DNA of 48,644 nt. Source: Escherichia coli (lineage in GTDB: Bacteria > Pseudomonadota > Gammaproteobacteria > Enterobacterales > Enterobacteriaceae). The notes beneath the pieces were generated by a model. The model made no database searches. It saw only the letters and a program-made list of their open reading frames with translations, and was not told the origin of the DNA. Where the stretch lies: NCBI RefSeq assembly GCF_016903815.1, contig NZ_CP069971.1; one strand, given 5' to 3'. Below are positions 2,256 through 42,959 of the stretch, piece by piece. The position numbers were made by a program, and so were the translations under genes. Positions within the stretch are counted from its first letter, which is position 1. Every line of letters begins with the position of its first letter.

Positions 2256-2767
2256 TGATGGCCCCCGTCATTTCTGGTGCTTTTCACCGTGCGGCTTCTT
2301 AAAAACCTGCCATCACGAACAACAGACACTTCTCGTTTACCCAACCTCATTTCACGGCGGTAACATTCAGAAAATGCCTCGTCCGGCATCATATAAATGC
2401 GACGCTTCGCCTCCGTATCCAGAAGGGAACGGCTTGGGGTTACATATAAAAACGACTCATCAATAGGGACAAAACCACGAGCAAGAATTGCTGGCAGAAT
2501 GCCAGGAAGAACGCAGAAAACAGCTCCACGATGCAGCAACATCTGGTACTCCATGACCTCCGTTATCCCCGTGACTACTGTTACGGTGTCACGTCTGTTA
2601 CGGCTGGCAACCAGTCGCTGCACACGTCCAATTTTCTGATCTACAGATAGATGTTTGCTATCGTTATCAATATGATCGATAGCAAATCCTTTAATCGTTT
2701 GATCAAGGTAGTGCACCACCTTCGATTGAATCTGGTGATTATCACCAAAGAAGGCCAGAATCATCAT
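2252..2767 (-). CDS. hypothetical protein
   Basis: 171 aa ORF; start overlaps the Cro-like gene stop by 4 nt. No family recognised. Confidence 0.4.
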   Translation of the reverse strand: MMILAFFGDNHQIQSKVVHYLDQTIKGFAIDHIDNDSKHLSVDQKIGRVQRLVASRNRRDTVTVVTGITEVMEYQMLLHRGAVFCVLPGILPAILARGFVPIDESFLYVTPSRSLLDTEAKRRIYMMPDEAFSECYRREMRLGKREVSVVRDGRFLRSRTVKSTRNDGGHQ

Positions 2768-3258
2768 TCCTCAAGCCTCCCAAGTGCTGAACGCCGGGCG
2801 TTGCTAATCTCCTTATGAATCAGCTCGATATCGCTGGAATCTTTATTCTTAAGCTCCAGCACGGTAATCGCATCACGAACCTCTGAAACGGTTACGTGTG
2901 AGTGTTTCCAGCGAGCAATGAATCGCGGACCGCGTAGATTGCAACGCTCCGCAGGCATCCCCAACTCAGAGAAAACCGCTTTCAGCCTTGATAAGCAGTT
3001 AACAGGGAGATTCCCTTTGATCTTGTTCTGCCGAACCGATGTGCCATCGCTACGCTGGCGCTGACGTTCGGCAAAATCTGCCGCCCATTGCTGGACGTTA
3101 ATCCGGCCTTCCGAATACGCCACCAGCAGCGTCAGGTTATCCGCACGAGGGAATCTCTCGAAGCGATACCAGGCACCAATCAGTGATGACGTAAAGCCAA
3201 ACTTTCTGGCAACACCAATTTGGCCTCCATTTTCGTCAACCCACTCCTGAAAGGTCAT
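2764..3258 (-). CDS. Cro-like HTH regulator with C-terminal extension
   Basis: 164 aa; N-terminal GGQIGVARKFGFTSSLIGAWYRFERFPRADNL resembles Cro/YdaS-type HTH; divergent from the CI-like gene across an operator cluster. Confidence 0.5.
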   Translation of the reverse strand: MTFQEWVDENGGQIGVARKFGFTSSLIGAWYRFERFPRADNLTLLVAYSEGRINVQQWAADFAERQRQRSDGTSVRQNKIKGNLPVNCLSRLKAVFSELGMPAERCNLRGPRFIARWKHSHVTVSEVRDAITVLELKNKDSSDIELIHKEISNARRSALGRLEE

Positions 3259-3274
3259 TTAACGAACTCCAGTT

Positions 3275-3400
3275 AAAACCACGATATGTGGTATTAAAAC
3301 CACATATCGTGAGTTTTTCAATGGGCAAAACAAAAAATAACCTTCTATTTGTGGTCCACCTCTCGTCTTACCATGTGAAAACCACTAAATGTGGTAATGT
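3275..3400. promoter_or_regulatory. divergent promoter/operator region with ACCAC-N5-GTGGT operator sites
   Basis: Cores at 3278-3292 (ACCACGATATGTGGT), 3299-3313 (ACCACATATCGTGAG, the mirror of the first) and 3381-3395 (ACCACTAAATGTGGT), plus a GTGGTCCAC element at 3351-3359. Confidence 0.6.
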
Positions 3401-3432: not shown

Positions 3433-4089
3433 ATGAAAAGCAACGACGAGAACATCAAGAAAGAAATAGGTCTGCGCATTCAGACTCTACGGAAACAATC
3501 CGGCATGACTGCCGGAGATCTCCAGCAAGTCACTGGAATAGGCTTAAGCACCTTGCAGAACTATGAGGCCGGATTAAGACAACCATCTATACCTGCCATC
3601 AAGAAAATCGCGCACGCCCTGAAAGCATCAGCGCCTTATATCGCGTGCTTAACAGATAACCCGTTCCCACCCCAGAATACTAACGCTCCTGTTATTCCTG
3701 GGCTTGTAGCTATAAAAAATGACATAGCATCGCACGCCGGAGAAAAGCCAGTGCTGGCGATAGAACAGGAGATTCTACGAAGCAAGAACATCAACCCATC
3801 GTCTCTGTCAGTTCTCCAGAGCAACGATGAGTTAATGTCACCAACAATATCCCCTGGCTCCCAAGTCCTGATTGATACAGACGATACAGAGATTCATGAG
3901 GGGATCTATGCCCTTGAAGACAGAAATGGCCTGGTTGTTTTGAGGCACTGTAGAGTCATACCGGGTGACAATGCTGTTATGCTGTCAACCGAAAGGGATG
4001 CTGAAATGAACACTAAGCATCTGAATAACGAGGAATTTAAGCGTTATAAAGTTCTGGGCCGCGTAGTTAGTGTTGTCAACTGGTTATGA
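3433..4089 (+). CDS. CI-like repressor (N-terminal HTH, C-terminal LexA/S24-type autopeptidase domain)
   Basis: 218 aa; HTH GLRIQTLRKQSGMTAGDLQQVTGIGLSTLQNYEAG; C-terminal ...VVLRHCRVIPGDNAVMLSTERD...YKVLGRVVSV resembles S24 peptidase. Confidence 0.75.
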   Translation: MKSNDENIKKEIGLRIQTLRKQSGMTAGDLQQVTGIGLSTLQNYEAGLRQPSIPAIKKIAHALKASAPYIACLTDNPFPPQNTNAPVIPGLVAIKNDIASHAGEKPVLAIEQEILRSKNINPSSLSVLQSNDELMSPTISPGSQVLIDTDDTEIHEGIYALEDRNGLVVLRHCRVIPGDNAVMLSTERDAEMNTKHLNNEEFKRYKVLGRVVSVVNWL

Positions 4090-4131
4090 TACACAGCACG
4101 GCGAAAGCCGTGCATTTCTACGCTCAAAAAA

Positions 4132-4146
4132 ACCACATTTTGTGGT
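4132..4146. promoter_or_regulatory. operator site ACCACATTTTGTGGT next to a TTGACA element
   Basis: Perfect 7-5-7 palindrome AAACCAC-ATTTT-GTGGTTT directly upstream of the 4182 ORF. Confidence 0.55.
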
Positions 4147-4181
4147 TTTGACAACATGTGAAAGTATAAAAGAGGCTACGC

Positions 4182-4556
4182 ATGGAATTACATACAGCCA
4201 ATAAAAACGAAACTCTGATCACTGCTGGAATCGAAATCCAAGCGTTGAACATAGCGATTGAGTGTATGTTATGCCAAATCATTGATAATGAGAAAGATAT
4301 CGACTGGATATCATCTACCCTTCATCTTGCTTACGAGCAAAAAGCCTGCCTCAAAACAGCCTTACAATACGATGTGCCTTCTGTATCAAAGCTGTGCCAG
4401 TCATTGATGGCATATAACAGAGCTATCATTTCTGTATGCCTCATGATTCTCGATGAGAATACCCCTCTTAGCGACCGCTCAGAAGCAGCTCTAACCCTCT
4501 CACGTAAACAGCGACAGCTAGCAAATCAACTGATATCAACGATAGCTGACCTCTGA
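4182..4556 (+). CDS. hypothetical protein (operator-controlled orphan gene)
   Basis: 124 aa ORF with an upstream GAGG RBS; flanked by an operator upstream and a hairpin terminator downstream. Confidence 0.45.
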   Translation: MELHTANKNETLITAGIEIQALNIAIECMLCQIIDNEKDIDWISSTLHLAYEQKACLKTALQYDVPSVSKLCQSLMAYNRAIISVCLMILDENTPLSDRSEAALTLSRKQRQLANQLISTIADL

Positions 4557-4560
4557 CTGC

Positions 4561-4585
4561 AAGCGGGCTAACGCCCGCTTATATG
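4561..4585 (+). terminator. intrinsic terminator hairpin
   Basis: AAGCGGGC-TAAC-GCCCGCTT followed by a T-rich stretch. Confidence 0.5.
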
Positions 4586-4589
4586 ATTA

Positions 4590-4683
4590 TAGATTTATAT
4601 AATTATATAAAACGCTTTTCATCCGCCAAAAAGTTGGTTATGCTTACCTCGTTCTATAAATATAGATTTATAGAATTATATAA
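4590..4683. repeat. two AT-rich composite sites (ATAGATTTATA + TATAATTATATAA) upstream of parA; candidate centromere/operator
   Basis: 4590-4610 ...tagatttatataattatataa and 4661-4683 tatagatttatagaattatataa. Confidence 0.5.
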
Positions 4684-4706
4684 CCAAACACATGGAGTCT
4701 CGACAA

Positions 4707-5360
4707 ATGACTATCTCTGTAGGTATTTTCAACGGAAAAGGCGGCGTAACCAAATCAACAATTGCCCGTGCTTTAGCAGTTGCTTATGCAAAGGCTGGCT
4801 GGAATGTATGCCTGATCGATATGGATGTGCTTAACGGAACGGTAACGCGTTGGGTACAACGCAGAATGGCCAACAATATCGAACCAGCAATCGCGGCGCA
4901 GCCGTGCGGCACACCATCACAAGTCCAGAAAATCATCGAATCAGAAGTATACGACCTGGTTATCGTCGATGGCGGTGCCTACGCATCTGAATCAGTACCG
5001 AAGCTCTCTGAATTTCTGGATATGGTTATTTTGCCAACCAGATTCTCTACCGATGACCTGGAAACCACCGTTAACACAGCTCACGGCATCGTTAAAAAGG
5101 GTGTACCAATCAAGAAAATTTGCATGGTGTTTTCCGGCGCGGCTGAAAACGAAGCTGACTATATTGAAGCCCAAGAGTACCTGGCTAATACGCCATACTT
5201 TGTTGTCGATAAGTACATTCCCCACAAGCCAGCTCTGAGCAAAGCTCAGGATAAGGGCTTAAGCCTTATTGAGTGCTCATACGTTGCGCCACGCAAAAAG
5301 GCAGACGATGTTATCCAGGGGATTATCAATCAGCTTGAGGCTCTGACTACTGCCGCGTAA
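4707..5360 (+). CDS. parA: ParA-family partition ATPase (deviant Walker A)
   Basis: MTISVGIFNGKGGVTKSTIA...CLIDMD; GGAG RBS about 10 nt upstream of the ATG at 4707 (the ORF track starts at an upstream in-frame ATG, 4692). Confidence 0.8.
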   Translation: MTISVGIFNGKGGVTKSTIARALAVAYAKAGWNVCLIDMDVLNGTVTRWVQRRMANNIEPAIAAQPCGTPSQVQKIIESEVYDLVIVDGGAYASESVPKLSEFLDMVILPTRFSTDDLETTVNTAHGIVKKGVPIKKICMVFSGAAENEADYIEAQEYLANTPYFVVDKYIPHKPALSKAQDKGLSLIECSYVAPRKKADDVIQGIINQLEALTTAA

Positions 5361-5391
5361 TATATAATTATAGTTTTATAGATTTATATAA
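5361..5391. repeat. AT-rich palindromic site between parA and the ParG-like gene
   Basis: tatataattatag ttt tatagatttatataa, the same motif family as at 4590-4683. Confidence 0.45.
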
Positions 5392-5403
5392 AAGGGGATA
5401 CAC

Positions 5404-5652
5404 ATGGCCGCACCATCAAAACCACCGAAAAAGAACAGCAAAGGCGTACCGCCATCAATCGAACAACCGCAGGTTTTCGACCCGACTGAAACGCCGACCA
5501 GAACCAAATCAGGTGGGGCACAAATGGCGTTTAACGTCGACCCTGAATTTAAACGCGAGTACAAAACGTTCGCCAGCTCAATGGATATGTCATTGAAAGA
5601 AGTGCTGACAAAATCTTTTGAGTTACTCAAGGCTCAATACAACCAGAAGTAA
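5404..5652 (+). CDS. small partition/centromere-binding protein, ParG-like (predicted ribbon-helix-helix)
   Basis: 82 aa; flexible basic N-terminus and C-terminal MAFNVDPEFKREYKTFASSMDMSLKEVL, RHH-like; immediately downstream of parA. Confidence 0.55.
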   Translation: MAAPSKPPKKNSKGVPPSIEQPQVFDPTETPTRTKSGGAQMAFNVDPEFKREYKTFASSMDMSLKEVLTKSFELLKAQYNQK

Positions 5653-5714: not shown

Positions 5715-5864
5715 ATGTCCGAGCAACAATATACACGGTTACTGAAAACTCGTCTAACCGACCTCAAACGGCTGCAAGCTGGTTGCTTATTTGCCCTGCT
5801 ATCTACCAGGCCAGAATGGGTACGTGAAGCAGTTCTGAAAGGTTTAATGCGCTCCAGCGTTTAA
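5715..5864 (+). CDS. hypothetical small protein (49 aa from ATG 5715)
   Basis: AAGGGG RBS 8 nt upstream of ATG 5715; the track ORF at 5682 begins with TTG. Confidence 0.3.
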   Translation: MSEQQYTRLLKTRLTDLKRLQAGCLFALLSTRPEWVREAVLKGLMRSSV

Positions 5865-5874
5865 ATTCAACCAT

Positions 5875-5900
5875 AAAAAAGGCCCCCGAAGGGGCCTAAT
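5875..5900 (-). terminator. intrinsic terminator (GGCCCC-CGAA-GGGGCC, T-run on minus strand)
   Basis: Perfect GC hairpin flanked by an A6 run on the plus strand, i.e. T6 on the minus strand; lies between convergent genes. Confidence 0.65.
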
Positions 5901-5902
5901 CG

Positions 5903-6022
5903 CTACTTGCTGCTAATGTTTATCGTCACATTCAGAGCGTTATCAGTAATCTTCCAACCCTCCCCATGTGGCGTAAACAAAGCTCCAGTAACAACGATAA
6001 AAATACACATACAGTATTTTTT
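5903..6022 (-). CDS. small hydrophobic peptide (about 40 aa), function unknown
   Basis: MKKYCMCIFIVVTGALFTPHGEGWKITDNALNVTINISSK with an AGGG RBS, ending at the terminator hairpin. Confidence 0.3.
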   Translation of the reverse strand, partial: KKYCMCIFIVVTGALFTPHGEGWKITDNALNVTINISSK

Positions 6023-6423
6023 CATTGTATGGCCCTTACAGGCCGTTTCACGGCATCCCCACCGACGAAAACAACGCGAGAGCAAGCACGGCTGCTTGTG
6101 CTTGCATGTACGGCAACGGAGAATCCTCCCCTAAAGTCGGTGCCCGGGTGCGAATCGGCGGGAAGGTCCACAGGTATTTTACGATTATTTTAAGATTAGT
6201 TATAGGAAAGAAATTAAACGAAAAAACTCGTTTATTTTCACAAAATCAGTAACCTACCCACAATCTGTGAGTTTGCAGGCACAACAAGAACCACAATTTT
6301 ATGAAGCATAATAGTGGACTATTATTACCTTTTGGGTAAAATTAACTTGCTGCTTGTGCTTGCGTGGTTGTTTATACAACAACGTAATGCTGAAAGGACC
6401 GCGAATCCGATCAGCACGAAAGA

Positions 6424-6468: not shown

Positions 6469-6483
6469 CCCACACTATGTGGT
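6469..6483. promoter_or_regulatory. operator-like site CCCACACTATGTGGT (ACCAC-N5-GTGGT family)
   Basis: One mismatch to the operator consensus seen between the CI-like and Cro-like genes. Confidence 0.5.
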
Positions 6484-6593
6484 TGTCTCTGTTAAAATCC
6501 CGCCGTATTGACATAAATGCGCCATTGGTGGACACTTTCCTAGCCGTAGCAAAATCTACGGTCGGGATTGGAACCCCGTAGACACAATGGCGC

Positions 6594-6616
6594 ATACCGC
6601 GTTAGCGGTTTTTTTA
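6594..6616 (+). terminator. second terminator-like hairpin in the antirepressor leader
   Basis: ACCGC-GTTA-GCGGT followed by T7. Confidence 0.45.
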
Positions 6617-6781
6617 TGCGTAAAGCACTGCTACACCCAAATTATGGTGGGGCGTGCGGGGGAGTCGTAAGACTCGCCGGTTCGTCATTGTGTCCGGTAG
6701 TTCCAACCCTGCACGTCTCACCACCCAATGATTGGAACCTGACGGTGGTGAGTATCCTTAACCTTTAAGGGAATCATCACA

Positions 6782-6973
6782 ATGACAAACCTACCCCATG
6801 ACTATTACGTCAACCTCGTAAAGATCCTTCTCAAGAAAGCCTCATACGCCGATAAATTCCGCCTGGCTGAAATAATCGAGCGCGAAGCTATGCGCATCGC
6901 CAGCAACGATAACGCTGTTTCTGTCGCAAAAATCTCCCTCGTAACCAAAGTAGTTATGGGAGGTGCAAAATGA
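6782..6973 (+). CDS. small protein translationally coupled to the antirepressor gene
   Basis: 63 aa; its stop overlaps the ATG of the next gene (ATGA overlap at 6970). Confidence 0.45.
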   Translation: MTNLPHDYYVNLVKILLKKASYADKFRLAEIIEREAMRIASNDNAVSVAKISLVTKVVMGGAK

Positions 6974-8151
6974 AAACGCTTCCGACCGTTAACACCCTAC
7001 AGCCTATCCTGCATAACCAGATCCCCGTTATCACTACTGAACTACTGGCGCAATTGTATGGAACCGAGCGCCAACGTCTGACGAACAATTTCAATAGAAA
7101 CAAGGAACGTTTTATAGAAGGTAAACACTTTTTTAGGATAGAAGGTAAAGAGTTACGAGAGTTGAAGAACAAAAACTCTTTAAGAGTTCCTGTGAGAGTA
7201 GTTAACGAACCATCTTTAAGAGGGTTACAAATTCCCCCGAAAGTTCGCTCCCTCATCCTCTGGACAGAACGCGGGGCTGCACGTCACGCCAAAATGCTTG
7301 AAACTAACCAAGCGTGGGATGTGTTCGAACGGCTGGAAGACTGCTATTTCAGCCAGAACGCGCAAACGGCCGCGACCGTAACCGTCTCGCCAAGCAATGC
7401 TCGTGAGGTTGTTGATACGCTCAACGCCAAACCAATGTATTACGTTAAGGTGTGCAATAACGAGCCACTCACAACCTCAGCCGATGTTGCCCAGGCATTC
7501 AGCACCACAAACAATTCCATCGTTATGGCCATCGATGCGTTACGCATTCCTCGCACAGCTGCGGCGCGTCATTTCTTTAAAGAGCAACGACCGTTGGAAG
7601 GAAGCGACCGCGAAATAACAATCTATCGCATGACAAAAGACGGATTTACCTTGCTCATGGAAAGTATCGACGGTCCAAGCGTGAAGGATATCAAGCTGGC
7701 CTACATTGAAGCTTTTAACGCTATCAGCAGCGTGTTAAAGGCAGAATACGAGCGAATACTATACAACCGACTGTATCAGGAAACAAAGATTATCCGAACG
7801 GCAACAGAACATCATCGGCTATTAACGGAACCAAACTACCGCAAGACACTAATCAAAGAGTTTGACAAAGCGACGGAGAAAACTAAAGCGGCACTAAATC
7901 TACCAACAATGACTAAGGATGATGTGATATCAGCCTTACTTCTTGATCTACTCAGAAACGCCAGAGCACTTATAAGCTTTGACGAAAACCTGAATCCTCA
8001 GCTCAAGCTACTACCACCGACAGGCAAAGTAGTCGACCAGGCTGATCACAACAGCATACTCAGCGTTCTGGATGCAAACCTGCCAGCCAGGACACTACAG
8101 GAACTGATAAAAATATCTGCGGATAAACTGGCCGCAGGTGCAAAACCATAA
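6970..8151 (+). CDS. antirepressor-like protein (ORF6N/KilA-type N-terminal domain)
   Basis: 393 aa; N-terminal ...NNFNRNKERFIEGKHFFRIEGKELRELK...LILWTERGAARHAKMLETNQAWDVFERLEDCYF matches the ORF6N-type antirepressor pattern as I recall it. Confidence 0.6.
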   Translation: MKTLPTVNTLQPILHNQIPVITTELLAQLYGTERQRLTNNFNRNKERFIEGKHFFRIEGKELRELKNKNSLRVPVRVVNEPSLRGLQIPPKVRSLILWTERGAARHAKMLETNQAWDVFERLEDCYFSQNAQTAATVTVSPSNAREVVDTLNAKPMYYVKVCNNEPLTTSADVAQAFSTTNNSIVMAIDALRIPRTAAARHFFKEQRPLEGSDREITIYRMTKDGFTLLMESIDGPSVKDIKLAYIEAFNAISSVLKAEYERILYNRLYQETKIIRTATEHHRLLTEPNYRKTLIKEFDKATEKTKAALNLPTMTKDDVISALLLDLLRNARALISFDENLNPQLKLLPPTGKVVDQADHNSILSVLDANLPARTLQELIKISADKLAAGAKP

Positions 8152-12867: not shown

Positions 12868-13848
12868 TTAATGTTGGAGTGATTTCCAGGTCTTTCTTAG
12901 CCTGTTATAACGCTGCTCAACGAGGGAGCGTAAATATGCAAGGTCAGCACCAGGATACATGCCATCAGCAAATTCCTGGCTAACCTCTCTAGTGATTTGA
13001 TGACGAAGTTCGGCCTCTCCCTTTTCCTGAACAAGACGCGCAGCTCTCTCCGCTGCTTTCTGTTTTGCCTTTATCTCTCTGGCCGTCTTCCTCTGACGCC
13101 ATACATTCTCCATCTGCTCCTGAATAACAATACGCTTATAATCAGCCTCCGTTATCGCTTTTTTAAGCCGTTCGCTATTCTTCGCATTGAAGTAATTAAG
13201 TTTCTGGCTAACCGCACGTCTCCATGCTTGTTCAGTAATACCAACTGTTTCCAGCAGTTGATCACGAATCTCGATTTTCGCTGGCCAATACTGTTTATTC
13301 ACCCGATCCCAGCGACGTTCATAATCAATAAAACCTAACTCTTTCAGTTGCGACAACGCCCTTGTACAGCGCGTTATAGACTTGTTCCCAGCTTCGGATA
13401 CGGTAGACAGGCCGCAAAAATCAGCCAACGCCTCAGCACTGGCCAGAACCCGCTTAGAAATGATGTTTACATGGTGCAAAATCGCAGCAATCACAGCATT
13501 AATCGCCCGACGACGATGCTCGTTTATCCGGCGTTTCCGCTCTGACGGTTGATTAACGTAGAACGCAACCTCACACGTAAGATCACGACCATTAATGCGC
13601 TGTAAAGCATCAGATAACACCAGCGGCAGCTTGTGCGTATGGTGCTTTGGAGGCTGGAACTCCGGCGACAAATTACAAACGTAAGCTGAACGTAGAGACG
13701 GCATTGGTCTATCCATATGTTCGCTCTTGCGTCCACGGAAAACCAACGTATAATGGGAGTTGTCGAGGCGCCCATGGATTGTTGTTGTTGGTTTTCCGTG
13801 GATGTCGCAAGAAGCCCGCAGATTTATCTGCGGGCTTTTTGTTTCCAT
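12868..13848 (-). CDS. repA: replication initiator RepA (IncFII RepA-like); may include a leader ORF, with an alternative internal start near 13716
   Basis: ...CGLSTVSEAGNKSITRCTRALSQLKELGFIDYERR... resembles the conserved core of IncFII RepA1 (recalled, not searched). Confidence 0.65.
   Translation of the reverse strand: METKSPQINLRASCDIHGKPTTTIHGRLDNSHYTLVFRGRKSEHMDRPMPSLRSAYVCNLSPEFQPPKHHTHKLPLVLSDALQRINGRDLTCEVAFYVNQPSERKRRINEHRRRAINAVIAAILHHVNIISKRVLASAEALADFCGLSTVSEAGNKSITRCTRALSQLKELGFIDYERRWDRVNKQYWPAKIEIRDQLLETVGITEQAWRRAVSQKLNYFNAKNSERLKKAITEADYKRIVIQEQMENVWRQRKTAREIKAKQKAAERAARLVQEKGEAELRHQITREVSQEFADGMYPGADLAYLRSLVEQRYNRLRKTWKSLQH
13762..13840 (+). ncRNA. CopA-like antisense RNA opposite the repA 5' region (putative)
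   Basis: Plus-strand promoter TTGCGT (13727-13732), 16-nt spacer, TATAAT (13749-13754); terminator AGCCCGCAGAT..ATCTGCGGGCT + T-run at 13813-13840, antisense to the first repA codons and RBS. Confidence 0.5.
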
Positions 13849-14055
13849 ATCTGGTCATTTTCCAACCAGACACCCACAATCATAACCACGTTACGTGGTT
13901 TTAAGAGAACTCTACCACAACACTTTCGGTCATGCACGAAGTCTCTCACTGATCGAACGATAATCCACCAGTAAAAGGATCTAAATTGGATCTCGTTTTG
14001 CGAGCATCATACTACTGGCCTAACTCCAGTCAATGATGAACATAACAACACTCCT

Positions 14056-42883: not shown

Positions 42884-42959
42884 TGGTGGCCCCTACCGGA
42901 TTTGAACCGATGACCGTGCGATTATGAGTCGCCTGCTCTAACCACTGAGCTAAGGGGCC
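42884..42959 (-). tRNA. tRNA with CAU anticodon (Met or Ile2-type)
   Basis: 76 nt; GGCCCCTTAGCTCAGTGGTTAGAGCAGGCGACTCATAATCGCACGGTCATCGGTTCAAATCCGGTAGGGGCCACCA; cloverleaf folds by eye, encoded CCA end. Confidence 0.8.

Follow-up and report, generated by a model that had tools for sequence, protein, structure and literature searches.

A family-wide gene of unassigned function behind a putative repressor operator in an Escherichia coli phage-plasmid

ORF124 and its flanking signals

The DNA stretch analysed here (the window; 48,644 nucleotides of Escherichia coli contig NZ_CP069971.1, assembly GCF_016903815.1) is, according to the annotation of an identical plasmid, a circular myovirus phage-plasmid of about 48 kb. 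We examined ORF124, an open reading frame (ORF) of this element that encodes 124 amino acids and lies, as a previous sequence-only reading had placed it, between the repressor and partition genes, with the repressor gene cI upstream and parA downstream. The gene and the signals around it are the following.

3433-4089, plus strand: cI-like repressor gene, product with a helix-turn-helix (HTH) and an S24-like C-terminal domain (CTD), matching the repressor families phrog_4 and phrog_6201
4096-4119, plus strand: intrinsic terminator of cI, GCACGGC-GAAA-GCCGTGC followed by ATTTCT, stem conserved
4126-4149, core 4132-4146: putative repressor operator AAAAAAACCAC-ATTTT-GTGGTTTT, an exact, enriched and conserved motif
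4140-4167, plus strand: weak promoter candidate, with a -35-like TTGTGG in the right half of the operator and an extended -10 (TG-n-GAAAGT or AAGTAT)
4170-4175, plus strand: Shine-Dalgarno (SD) sequence AAGAGG, 6 nt before the ATG, kept as (A/G)AGAGG in 7 of 7 aligned loci
4182-4556, plus strand: coding sequence of ORF124, a 124-residue acidic soluble four-helix bundle by prediction and a member of PHROG 7632 (ORF list, profile match and AlphaFold2)
4311-4496, plus strand: recombination patch over codons 44-105, which sets the window allele apart from the common E. coli allele
4561-4580, plus strand: hairpin AAGCGGGC-TAAC-GCCCGCTT after the ORF124 stop codon (-16.1 kcal/mol, z -3.7)

ORF124 is a constrained gene encoding a predicted helical bundle

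From end to end (residues 1-124 on profile positions 1-124; E 4.5e-79, 263 bits), the product of ORF124 matches PHROG 7632, a family annotated as 'unknown function'. Other family searches were uninformative: Pfam, the Ocr and ArdA families included, gave no match even at E<=10, NCBIfam gave no meaningful match, the PADLOC-DB v2 defence profiles gave 0 families at E<=1 for ORF124 and three neighbours, and no PDB sequence was found below E=0.5 with the ORF124 profile. Sequence similarity to antirepressor families was likewise absent (only phrog_7632 matched, Pfam was empty, and the 49 profile matches are all 'hypothetical'). The sequence-only description of a protein with no recognisable family is thus borne out, PHROG 7632 being the only assignment. 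The family is also sparsely represented. A phmmer search against 1.84 billion representative proteins returned just 6 matches, and an 18-sequence profile search covering all subfamilies, together with two word-indexed searches, yielded 49 clusters on contigs of 44-50 kb.

Comparison with three plasmids or phages that elsewhere share 98-100% identity gave a ratio of nonsynonymous to synonymous substitution rates (dN/dS) of 0.12-0.18 for the whole gene, indicating purifying selection. Identity to these otherwise 98-100% identical plasmids falls to 85-86% at 4300-4399. The patch at codons 44-105 has a dS of 0.35-0.42, compared with approximately 0 outside it, and a dN/dS of 0.11-0.15; diversifying selection on ORF124 was therefore rejected, and the divergent patch is a recombination tract.

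Truncated alleles were also considered as a sign of dispensability, and this was ruled out, since the indels all lie in A-runs and the cI gene and intergenic DNA of the same assembly are likewise hit. Database proteins of 60-78 residues that resemble truncations of ORF124 derive from such single-base indels. In the one assembly examined (GCA_004745395.1, Escherichia sp. E2593; locus L044), single-base indels occur between 1576 and 3040 in four or five A-runs of cI, the operator flank and the ORF, where they yield a split cI (96 + 112 residues) and the 'truncated' ORF124 database proteins P0005, P0008, P0009 and P0011. Judged from this assembly, the truncated alleles are probably sequencing artefacts. 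The selection acting on it, its conserved SD sequence and its confident predicted fold mark ORF124 as a genuine constrained gene. On the opposite strand, a promoter-like site within the ORF and directed at the operator and cI (4248-4277, minus strand; TTGGCA-18-TATGTT, 9/12) is probably a chance occurrence.

Structure prediction and remote homology search, both proposed by the sequence-only reading, gave a four-helix bundle and no named relative, structural or regulatory. The AlphaFold2 model, built on a 10-sequence alignment, has a predicted local distance difference test score (pLDDT) of 91.5 and a predicted template modelling score (pTM) of 0.85, and its helices at residues 2-36, 40-61, 66-91 and 96-123 are predicted to form an up-down bundle. 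Fold searches with the model found no match below E=0.01 in BFVD and only the ORF124 protein itself in AFDB50, and nothing informative for the fold came from the three fold libraries searched. The protein is acidic, with a pI of 4.87 and a net charge of -5 (4.3-4.9 and -5 to -12 across the family). By simple heuristics, a maximum 19-residue Kyte-Doolittle value of 1.51 and the polar N-terminus MELHTANKNE indicate no clear transmembrane segment and no signal-peptide-like start. No catalytic or DNA-binding signature was found in the product.

The only fully symmetric operator copy precedes ORF124

The operator core ACCACATTTTGTGGT at 4132-4146 is an exact ACCAC-N5-GTGGT, with its centre 43 nt from the ATG of ORF124. 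At one mismatch or fewer this motif occurs 8 times in the window against 0.91 expected, a count that none of 100 shuffles reached. Only in the ORF124 copy do both half-sites agree with AAAACCAC at 8 of 8 positions (AAAACCAC-N5-GTGGTTTT), and its symmetry is 9/11. In the relatives, where the gene occupying the ORF124 slot is hereafter called X, the fully symmetric site (A3-8 CCAC-N5-GTGG T3-7) is present once per pattern-matching locus of subfamily 1, the subfamily of the window, and always before X. Loci L012 and L013, in which the left half-site is AATAACCAC, fall outside the symmetric pattern. The half-sites are invariant in the matching loci and the central five nucleotides vary (ATTTT, GCTTT, GATTT, GTTAC, GTTTC and GTTAT); invariant halves around a variable centre are, in sequence terms, a pattern characteristic of protein-binding sites. 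The distant loci L034 and L035 carry other operators, and there, too, OR-type motifs recur a short way 5' of X.

The other copies of the operator in the window lie at the following places.

3278-3395: right operator (OR) region, with exact operators at 3278-3292 and 3381-3395 and an imperfect copy at about 3301-3315, situated between a divergent cro-like gene (2764-3258, minus strand) and cI
6469-6483: one-mismatch operator upstream of the operon of isrK, the C4 RNA and the antirepressor
6469-8151, plus strand: P1/P7-like secondary immunity region consisting of this operator, isrK, C4, a 63-residue ORF and the antirepressor gene
13885-13899: exact operator copy ACCACGTTACGTGGT, 37 nt upstream of the start of repA (12868-13848, minus strand)

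The copy at repA, a gene annotated in the identical plasmid, abuts TATGAT, a -10-like hexamer on the repA strand, and the prophage repressor probably throttles plasmid replication there; repressor control of plasmid replication is known from N15. In the secondary immunity region, the isrK RNA (6543-6615, 67.7 bits) and the C4 antisense RNA (6640-6728, 77.8 bits) are followed by the 63-residue ORF and then by an ORF6N/pRha-type antirepressor gene (6970-8151) located 3' of C4. Taken together, the operator copies before repA and the C4/antirepressor operon would constitute a dispersed repressor regulon of lytic and replication functions. Dispersed repressor regulons are found in P1 and N15.

The HTH domain of cI (residues 1-75) is nearly invariant across subfamily 1, and the linker and CTD diverge. 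In the S24-like CTD, S-N-D-E-L-M stands where LexA and lambda cI carry G-D/N-S-M. The catalytic serine thus seems to be absent from this cI, and induction would therefore probably proceed via the antirepressor and not by self-cleavage.

Promoter and flanking hairpins

The sequence-only reading had credited ORF124 with its own promoter, overlapped by an operator, and with its own terminator. The operator stands, being exact, enriched and conserved, but no canonical promoter was recovered. The pair TTGACA (4148-4153) and TATAAA (4165-4170) was rejected as a promoter, since its spacer is 11 bp and relatives have GAATTC, GTTTTC or GAATCG in place of TATAAA. A consensus scan called no plus-strand promoter upstream of ORF124, and a position weight matrix (PWM) scan of six loci gave best scores between 2 and 7.5 bits, the background median in random 95-nt windows being 4.7, with nothing above background; the candidate for the rightward promoter PR, TTGAAA-17-TTTAAT, scored 9.4 with the same matrix. 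The only candidate that recurs in position is the TG-extended -10 TGtGAAAGT at 4157-4165, which is found in five of the six loci and scores at background.

The interval from the end of the cI terminator (about 4119) to the start of the SD sequence (4170) measures about 50 bp and holds a 21-bp operator in its middle, and any promoter must therefore overlap the operator. Class-II activation by cI was considered and rejected, as a site centred at -41.5 would place the start of transcription on the ATG and so leave the conserved SD sequence outside the transcript; repression is therefore the natural reading of the site.

Both flanking hairpins are conserved. The stem of the cI terminator is kept in 7 loci with changes in loop and stem, its tail is TTTTTTG in divergent loci, and it is predicted to separate ORF124 from cI transcription. 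The terminator and the operator palindrome fold together with -24.3 kcal/mol (z -5.3). The hairpin after ORF124 is kept in 6 loci with loop variation and is found also in the distant L034 and L035, where the hairpin preceding X is present as well. The claim of an own terminator is therefore plausible from the hairpin, but its tail is U-poor: TTATATGA contains only 4 T in 8, fails the terminator rule of the scan and is already the first partition iteron. Relatives carry TTTATATA at this place. The structure is probably a weak, leaky terminator of ORF124.

Distribution, synteny and evolutionary rate

The segment 3200-5700 is 100% identical to the E. coli O141:H4 plasmid pP136-7 (48,077 bp, circular, non-mobilizable). 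The annotation of pP136-7 includes the genes of a contractile-tail phage (terminase, portal, capsid, sheath-less tube, tape measure, baseplate and tail fibres) as well as those for RepA, ParA and a RelE/ParE toxin-antitoxin pair, and the window is therefore regarded as a phage-plasmid. The 2.5 kb surrounding the ORF are 98% identical to about 57 further plasmids of 47-50 kb from Escherichia, Klebsiella and Salmonella and likewise to the Yersinia pestis phages vB_YpM_39/41/44, phages which show that such phage-plasmids form infectious virions. Among 5,426 complete E. coli genomes, 70 contain the ORF region, including that of ATCC 25922, and 71 of its 72 places are on plasmids. The element fitted none of the named phage-plasmid groups that were checked (pSLy3 and pKpn, related to SSU5), and a literature search returned no publication on the vB_YpM phages, the ORF124 protein accessions or PHROG 7632.

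Downstream of ORF124 lies the partition region, with the following features.

4580-4612, 4653-4693 and 5361-5401: clusters of partition iterons, AT-rich, TATAGATT-like repeats with an 8-bp period
4707-5360, plus strand: parA (phrog_164; NF041546 ParA)
5404-5652, plus strand: parG-like gene of 82 residues (phrog_6024, function unassigned; ribbon-helix-helix (RHH) by eye only)

The iteron clusters flank the parA promoter region and occupy the space between parA and the parG-like gene, so placed as likely candidates for the centromere and for autoregulatory sites. Their sequence is wholly different in the distant subfamilies (L034 and L035).

The gene order of cro-like (divergent), cI, X, parA and parG-like is the same in every relative with a readable contig. 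Subfamily 1 is found in Escherichia, Citrobacter, Yokenella and metagenomes, with a cro-like product of 164 residues (minus strand) and a parG-like product of 82. A search with a cI alignment detected elements of Enterobacter, Serratia, Citrobacter and others whose cI is 31-35% identical to that of the window, and in these distant elements the same five-gene order is present, with an acidic protein of 123-133 residues in the X slot. The two X subfamilies align by hhalign with E 3.4e-4 over 87 columns, and the joint alignment shares the motifs A-[IL]-E-C-[MI], [IV]-D, L-E-[SA] and E-A-x-L-T with invariant C28, D35, L75 and E101. Because of this match and the shared motifs, the X proteins of the distant subfamilies are treated here as putative positional orthologues. 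An intact ORF is kept in all loci across three subfamilies. The protein identities at three levels of divergence are as follows.

Closest pair within subfamily 2: X 83%; the other four module genes 85-94%
Within subfamily 1: X 36-60%; cI 61-66%; cro-like 71-76%; ParA 89-97%
Between subfamilies: X 25-27%; cI 31-35%; cro-like 40-42%; ParA 52-55%

X is thus the most rapidly diverging of the five module genes at each level. As far as gene order and sequence conservation tell, it is a core component of the immunity and partition region, shared by a family of enterobacterial phage-plasmids of roughly 45-50 kb, and not swappable cargo.

A repressor-gated early gene as the favoured interpretation

The interpretation that we favour, with about even confidence, is that X is a repressor-silenced immediate-early protein acting by binding another protein. 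Under this interpretation X would form a small transcription unit of its own (cI terminator, operator, SD sequence, coding sequence and hairpin) and would be part of the prophage repressor regulon. Since the gap available to a promoter is occupied by the one fully symmetric operator, X is most likely off in the plasmid state; the anatomy of the locus would have it held off, or very low, during plasmid carriage and derepressed on cell entry or induction, along with repA, the early operon of the cro-like gene and that of the antirepressor. The product, a small acidic cytoplasmic four-helix bundle, would then neutralise another protein at the onset of lytic growth or establishment. A small acidic bundle with no enzymatic or DNA-binding signature is most likely a protein binder, and the fast divergence of X under purifying selection fits a binder that tracks its partner. 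As for the target, our guess, a tentative one, is that a protein of the host or of a competing element is somewhat likelier than cI or the Par proteins of the element itself.

Several points weigh against this interpretation. With no promoter above background in either the consensus or the PWM scan, the independent transcription of X is something that we infer. The weak tail of the cI terminator (ATTTCT) possibly allows read-through, and hence some expression of X in lysogens. The operator, at which binding is predicted from sequence, could in principle serve looping with OR and not the control of X. Finally, no partner for X was found. An AlphaFold2 co-fold of ORF124-(GGGGS)6-cI, based on a shallow alignment of 11 paired sequences, gave a pTM of 0.37 with individually confident domains and a disordered linker; this is the value expected of independent domains, and it is a weak negative for predicted contact with cI.

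Repressor-gated early genes are a known kind in temperate phages, and X itself has no known relatives of assigned function. Full-length membership in PHROG 7632 explains nothing in this respect, as no function is assigned to that family. The closest parallel in topology is the first gene of the lambda PL operon, the N position: both regions share the order cro, PR/OR/PRM, cI, terminator, operator and a small fast-evolving early gene, as is characteristic of lambdoid immediate-early genes, and in both the early gene runs in the same direction as cI and would be expressed only when repressor is lacking. There is no relation in sequence or fold, however, N being an arginine-rich disordered antiterminator and X a folded acidic bundle by prediction. 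In addition, there is one operator here and three in lambda, and the X unit, whose promoter is putative, appears to be monocistronic, with a hairpin before the par operon.

A second parallel is Coi of P1, the inactivator of the c1 repressor in the tripartite immunity system of that phage. P1 and the present element are both phage-plasmids with a small gene next to the repressor gene under (putative) repressor-operator control, both have a C4-RNA/antirepressor region, and both have operators scattered before single lytic or replication genes. They differ in that X lies downstream and Coi upstream of the repressor gene, in size (124 residues against about 70) and in the divergent cro-like gene that is present here; moreover, X has no similarity to antirepressors in PHROG or Pfam, and the co-fold with cI does not support an interaction. 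The third comparison is with T7 Ocr and ArdA, which are small acidic early anti-restriction proteins and DNA mimics. By analogy, X would share with them a small, acidic and helical product, expected to be made at entry and then shut off. Yet its charge (net -5; -5 to -12 in the family) is far smaller, no Pfam match links it to them, and an elongated DNA-like dimer is not indicated.

Alternative explanations

The sequence-only reading had pointed to a lysogeny-expressed gene for superinfection exclusion or anti-phage defence, with transcription, as we would put it, starting at a promoter of its own or reading through from cI. X does lie beside the repressor gene in the same orientation, which is the classical position of lambda rexAB; it evolves fast, and the weak terminator tail in the window makes read-through conceivable. 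However, rexAB is co-transcribed with cI with nothing in between, and here the conserved terminator (4096-4119) and the strongest operator (4126-4149) intervene. Placed behind the prophage repressor's best operator, such a gene would be expected to be shut off in the lysogen. Nor does the slot vary, as would be usual for conversion genes: X is a core gene in all relatives and is not swapped like cargo. No defence family was matched in PADLOC, dN/dS shows no sign of diversifying selection, and the predicted protein is soluble with no membrane anchor; classical exclusion proteins of the Sie, Imm and Cor types are located in the membrane or envelope. This explanation is disfavoured, though not refuted, and we regard it as quite unlikely. 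Less improbable, if still rather unlikely, is a modulator of the element's own cI, either an inactivator like Coi or Qtip or a co-factor like Lxc, that would sharpen the transition from plasmid to lytic growth. X adjoins cI, is under its putative control and is retained with it across deep divergence; a second immunity region resembling that of P1 is present in the element, and P1 itself has, beside c1, a small inactivator gene under repressor control. The conserved acidic junction IDNExDIDWxES between helices 1 and 2 and a divergence comparable to that of the cI CTD also agree with such a role. Against it stand the weak negative of the co-fold, the presence in the element of both a cro-like gene and a dedicated antirepressor, the lack of similarity to annotated antirepressor PHROGs, and the recombinational replacement of the central patch of X next to a cI that remained about 100% identical.

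An accessory role in plasmid maintenance, in which X binds ParA, the ParG-like protein or RepA to stop partition or copy control on the switch to lytic growth or to aid establishment of these functions after entry, is as unlikely as the exclusion or defence reading. X always lies immediately upstream of parA and parG, its hairpin abuts the first iteron cluster, and repA bears the same operator, so that replication and X would be co-regulated. The par locus, however, looks complete in the absence of X (a ParA ATPase, a small protein that is RHH-like by eye, and iterons), ParA is 89-97% conserved where X is 36-60%, with no coupling of rates, and we know of no precedent for such an accessory. The least probable explanation, to which we give very little weight, is that the operator is primarily a distal anchor for looping to OR, in the manner of lambda OL, or belongs to a tandem terminator, with the ORF as a weakly expressed passenger of little function. 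It would account for the lack of a recognisable promoter before X, for the palindrome and T-run that fold in a terminator-like manner directly after the cI terminator, and for a site 750-860 bp from the OR operators. Purifying selection, the conserved SD sequence, an ORF intact in all loci of three subfamilies and the confident predicted fold speak against a passenger, and the seemingly truncated alleles probably reflect artefactual indels in homopolymers.

Returning to X as a repressor-gated binder, it may further be a plasmid-to-phage commitment factor, that is, a bundle that inhibits cI, Par or a host factor of carriage when the repressor is lifted. We consider this unlikely; if true, it would be a new kind of switch component with no homologue among known antirepressors. 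How phage-plasmids pass from carriage as plasmids to lytic growth is not well understood, and X, for now another phage ORFan whose regulatory surroundings are well described, is a single, cleanly delimited and family-wide gene behind the best operator, tractable and present also in ATCC 25922. It may expose either a new early protein of host takeover or anti-defence, or a new component of the switch.

Other features of the window

Directly 3' of the parG-like gene lies an ORF of 49 residues (5715-5864, plus strand), which was called also in L008, L009 and L042-L044 and has a weak PHROG match only (phrog_22022, E 8.6e-4). It is followed by a match to the Rfam ryfA RNA (5875-6171, minus strand) that scores 142 bits against a gathering score of 80 and contains a small hydrophobic ORF, MKKYCMCIFIVVTGALF..., as part of the ORF at 5903-6085 (minus strand). 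This locus, with the par operon on one side and the antirepressor region on the other, looks like a type I toxin locus of the TimP/ryfA type, and in other members of the family a gene for an XRE-type regulator replaces ryfA in the same interval. In addition, the phage-plasmid carries a tRNA-Met (CAT) gene at 42884-42959 on the minus strand, detected by ARAGORN and by the Rfam tRNA model (67 bits).

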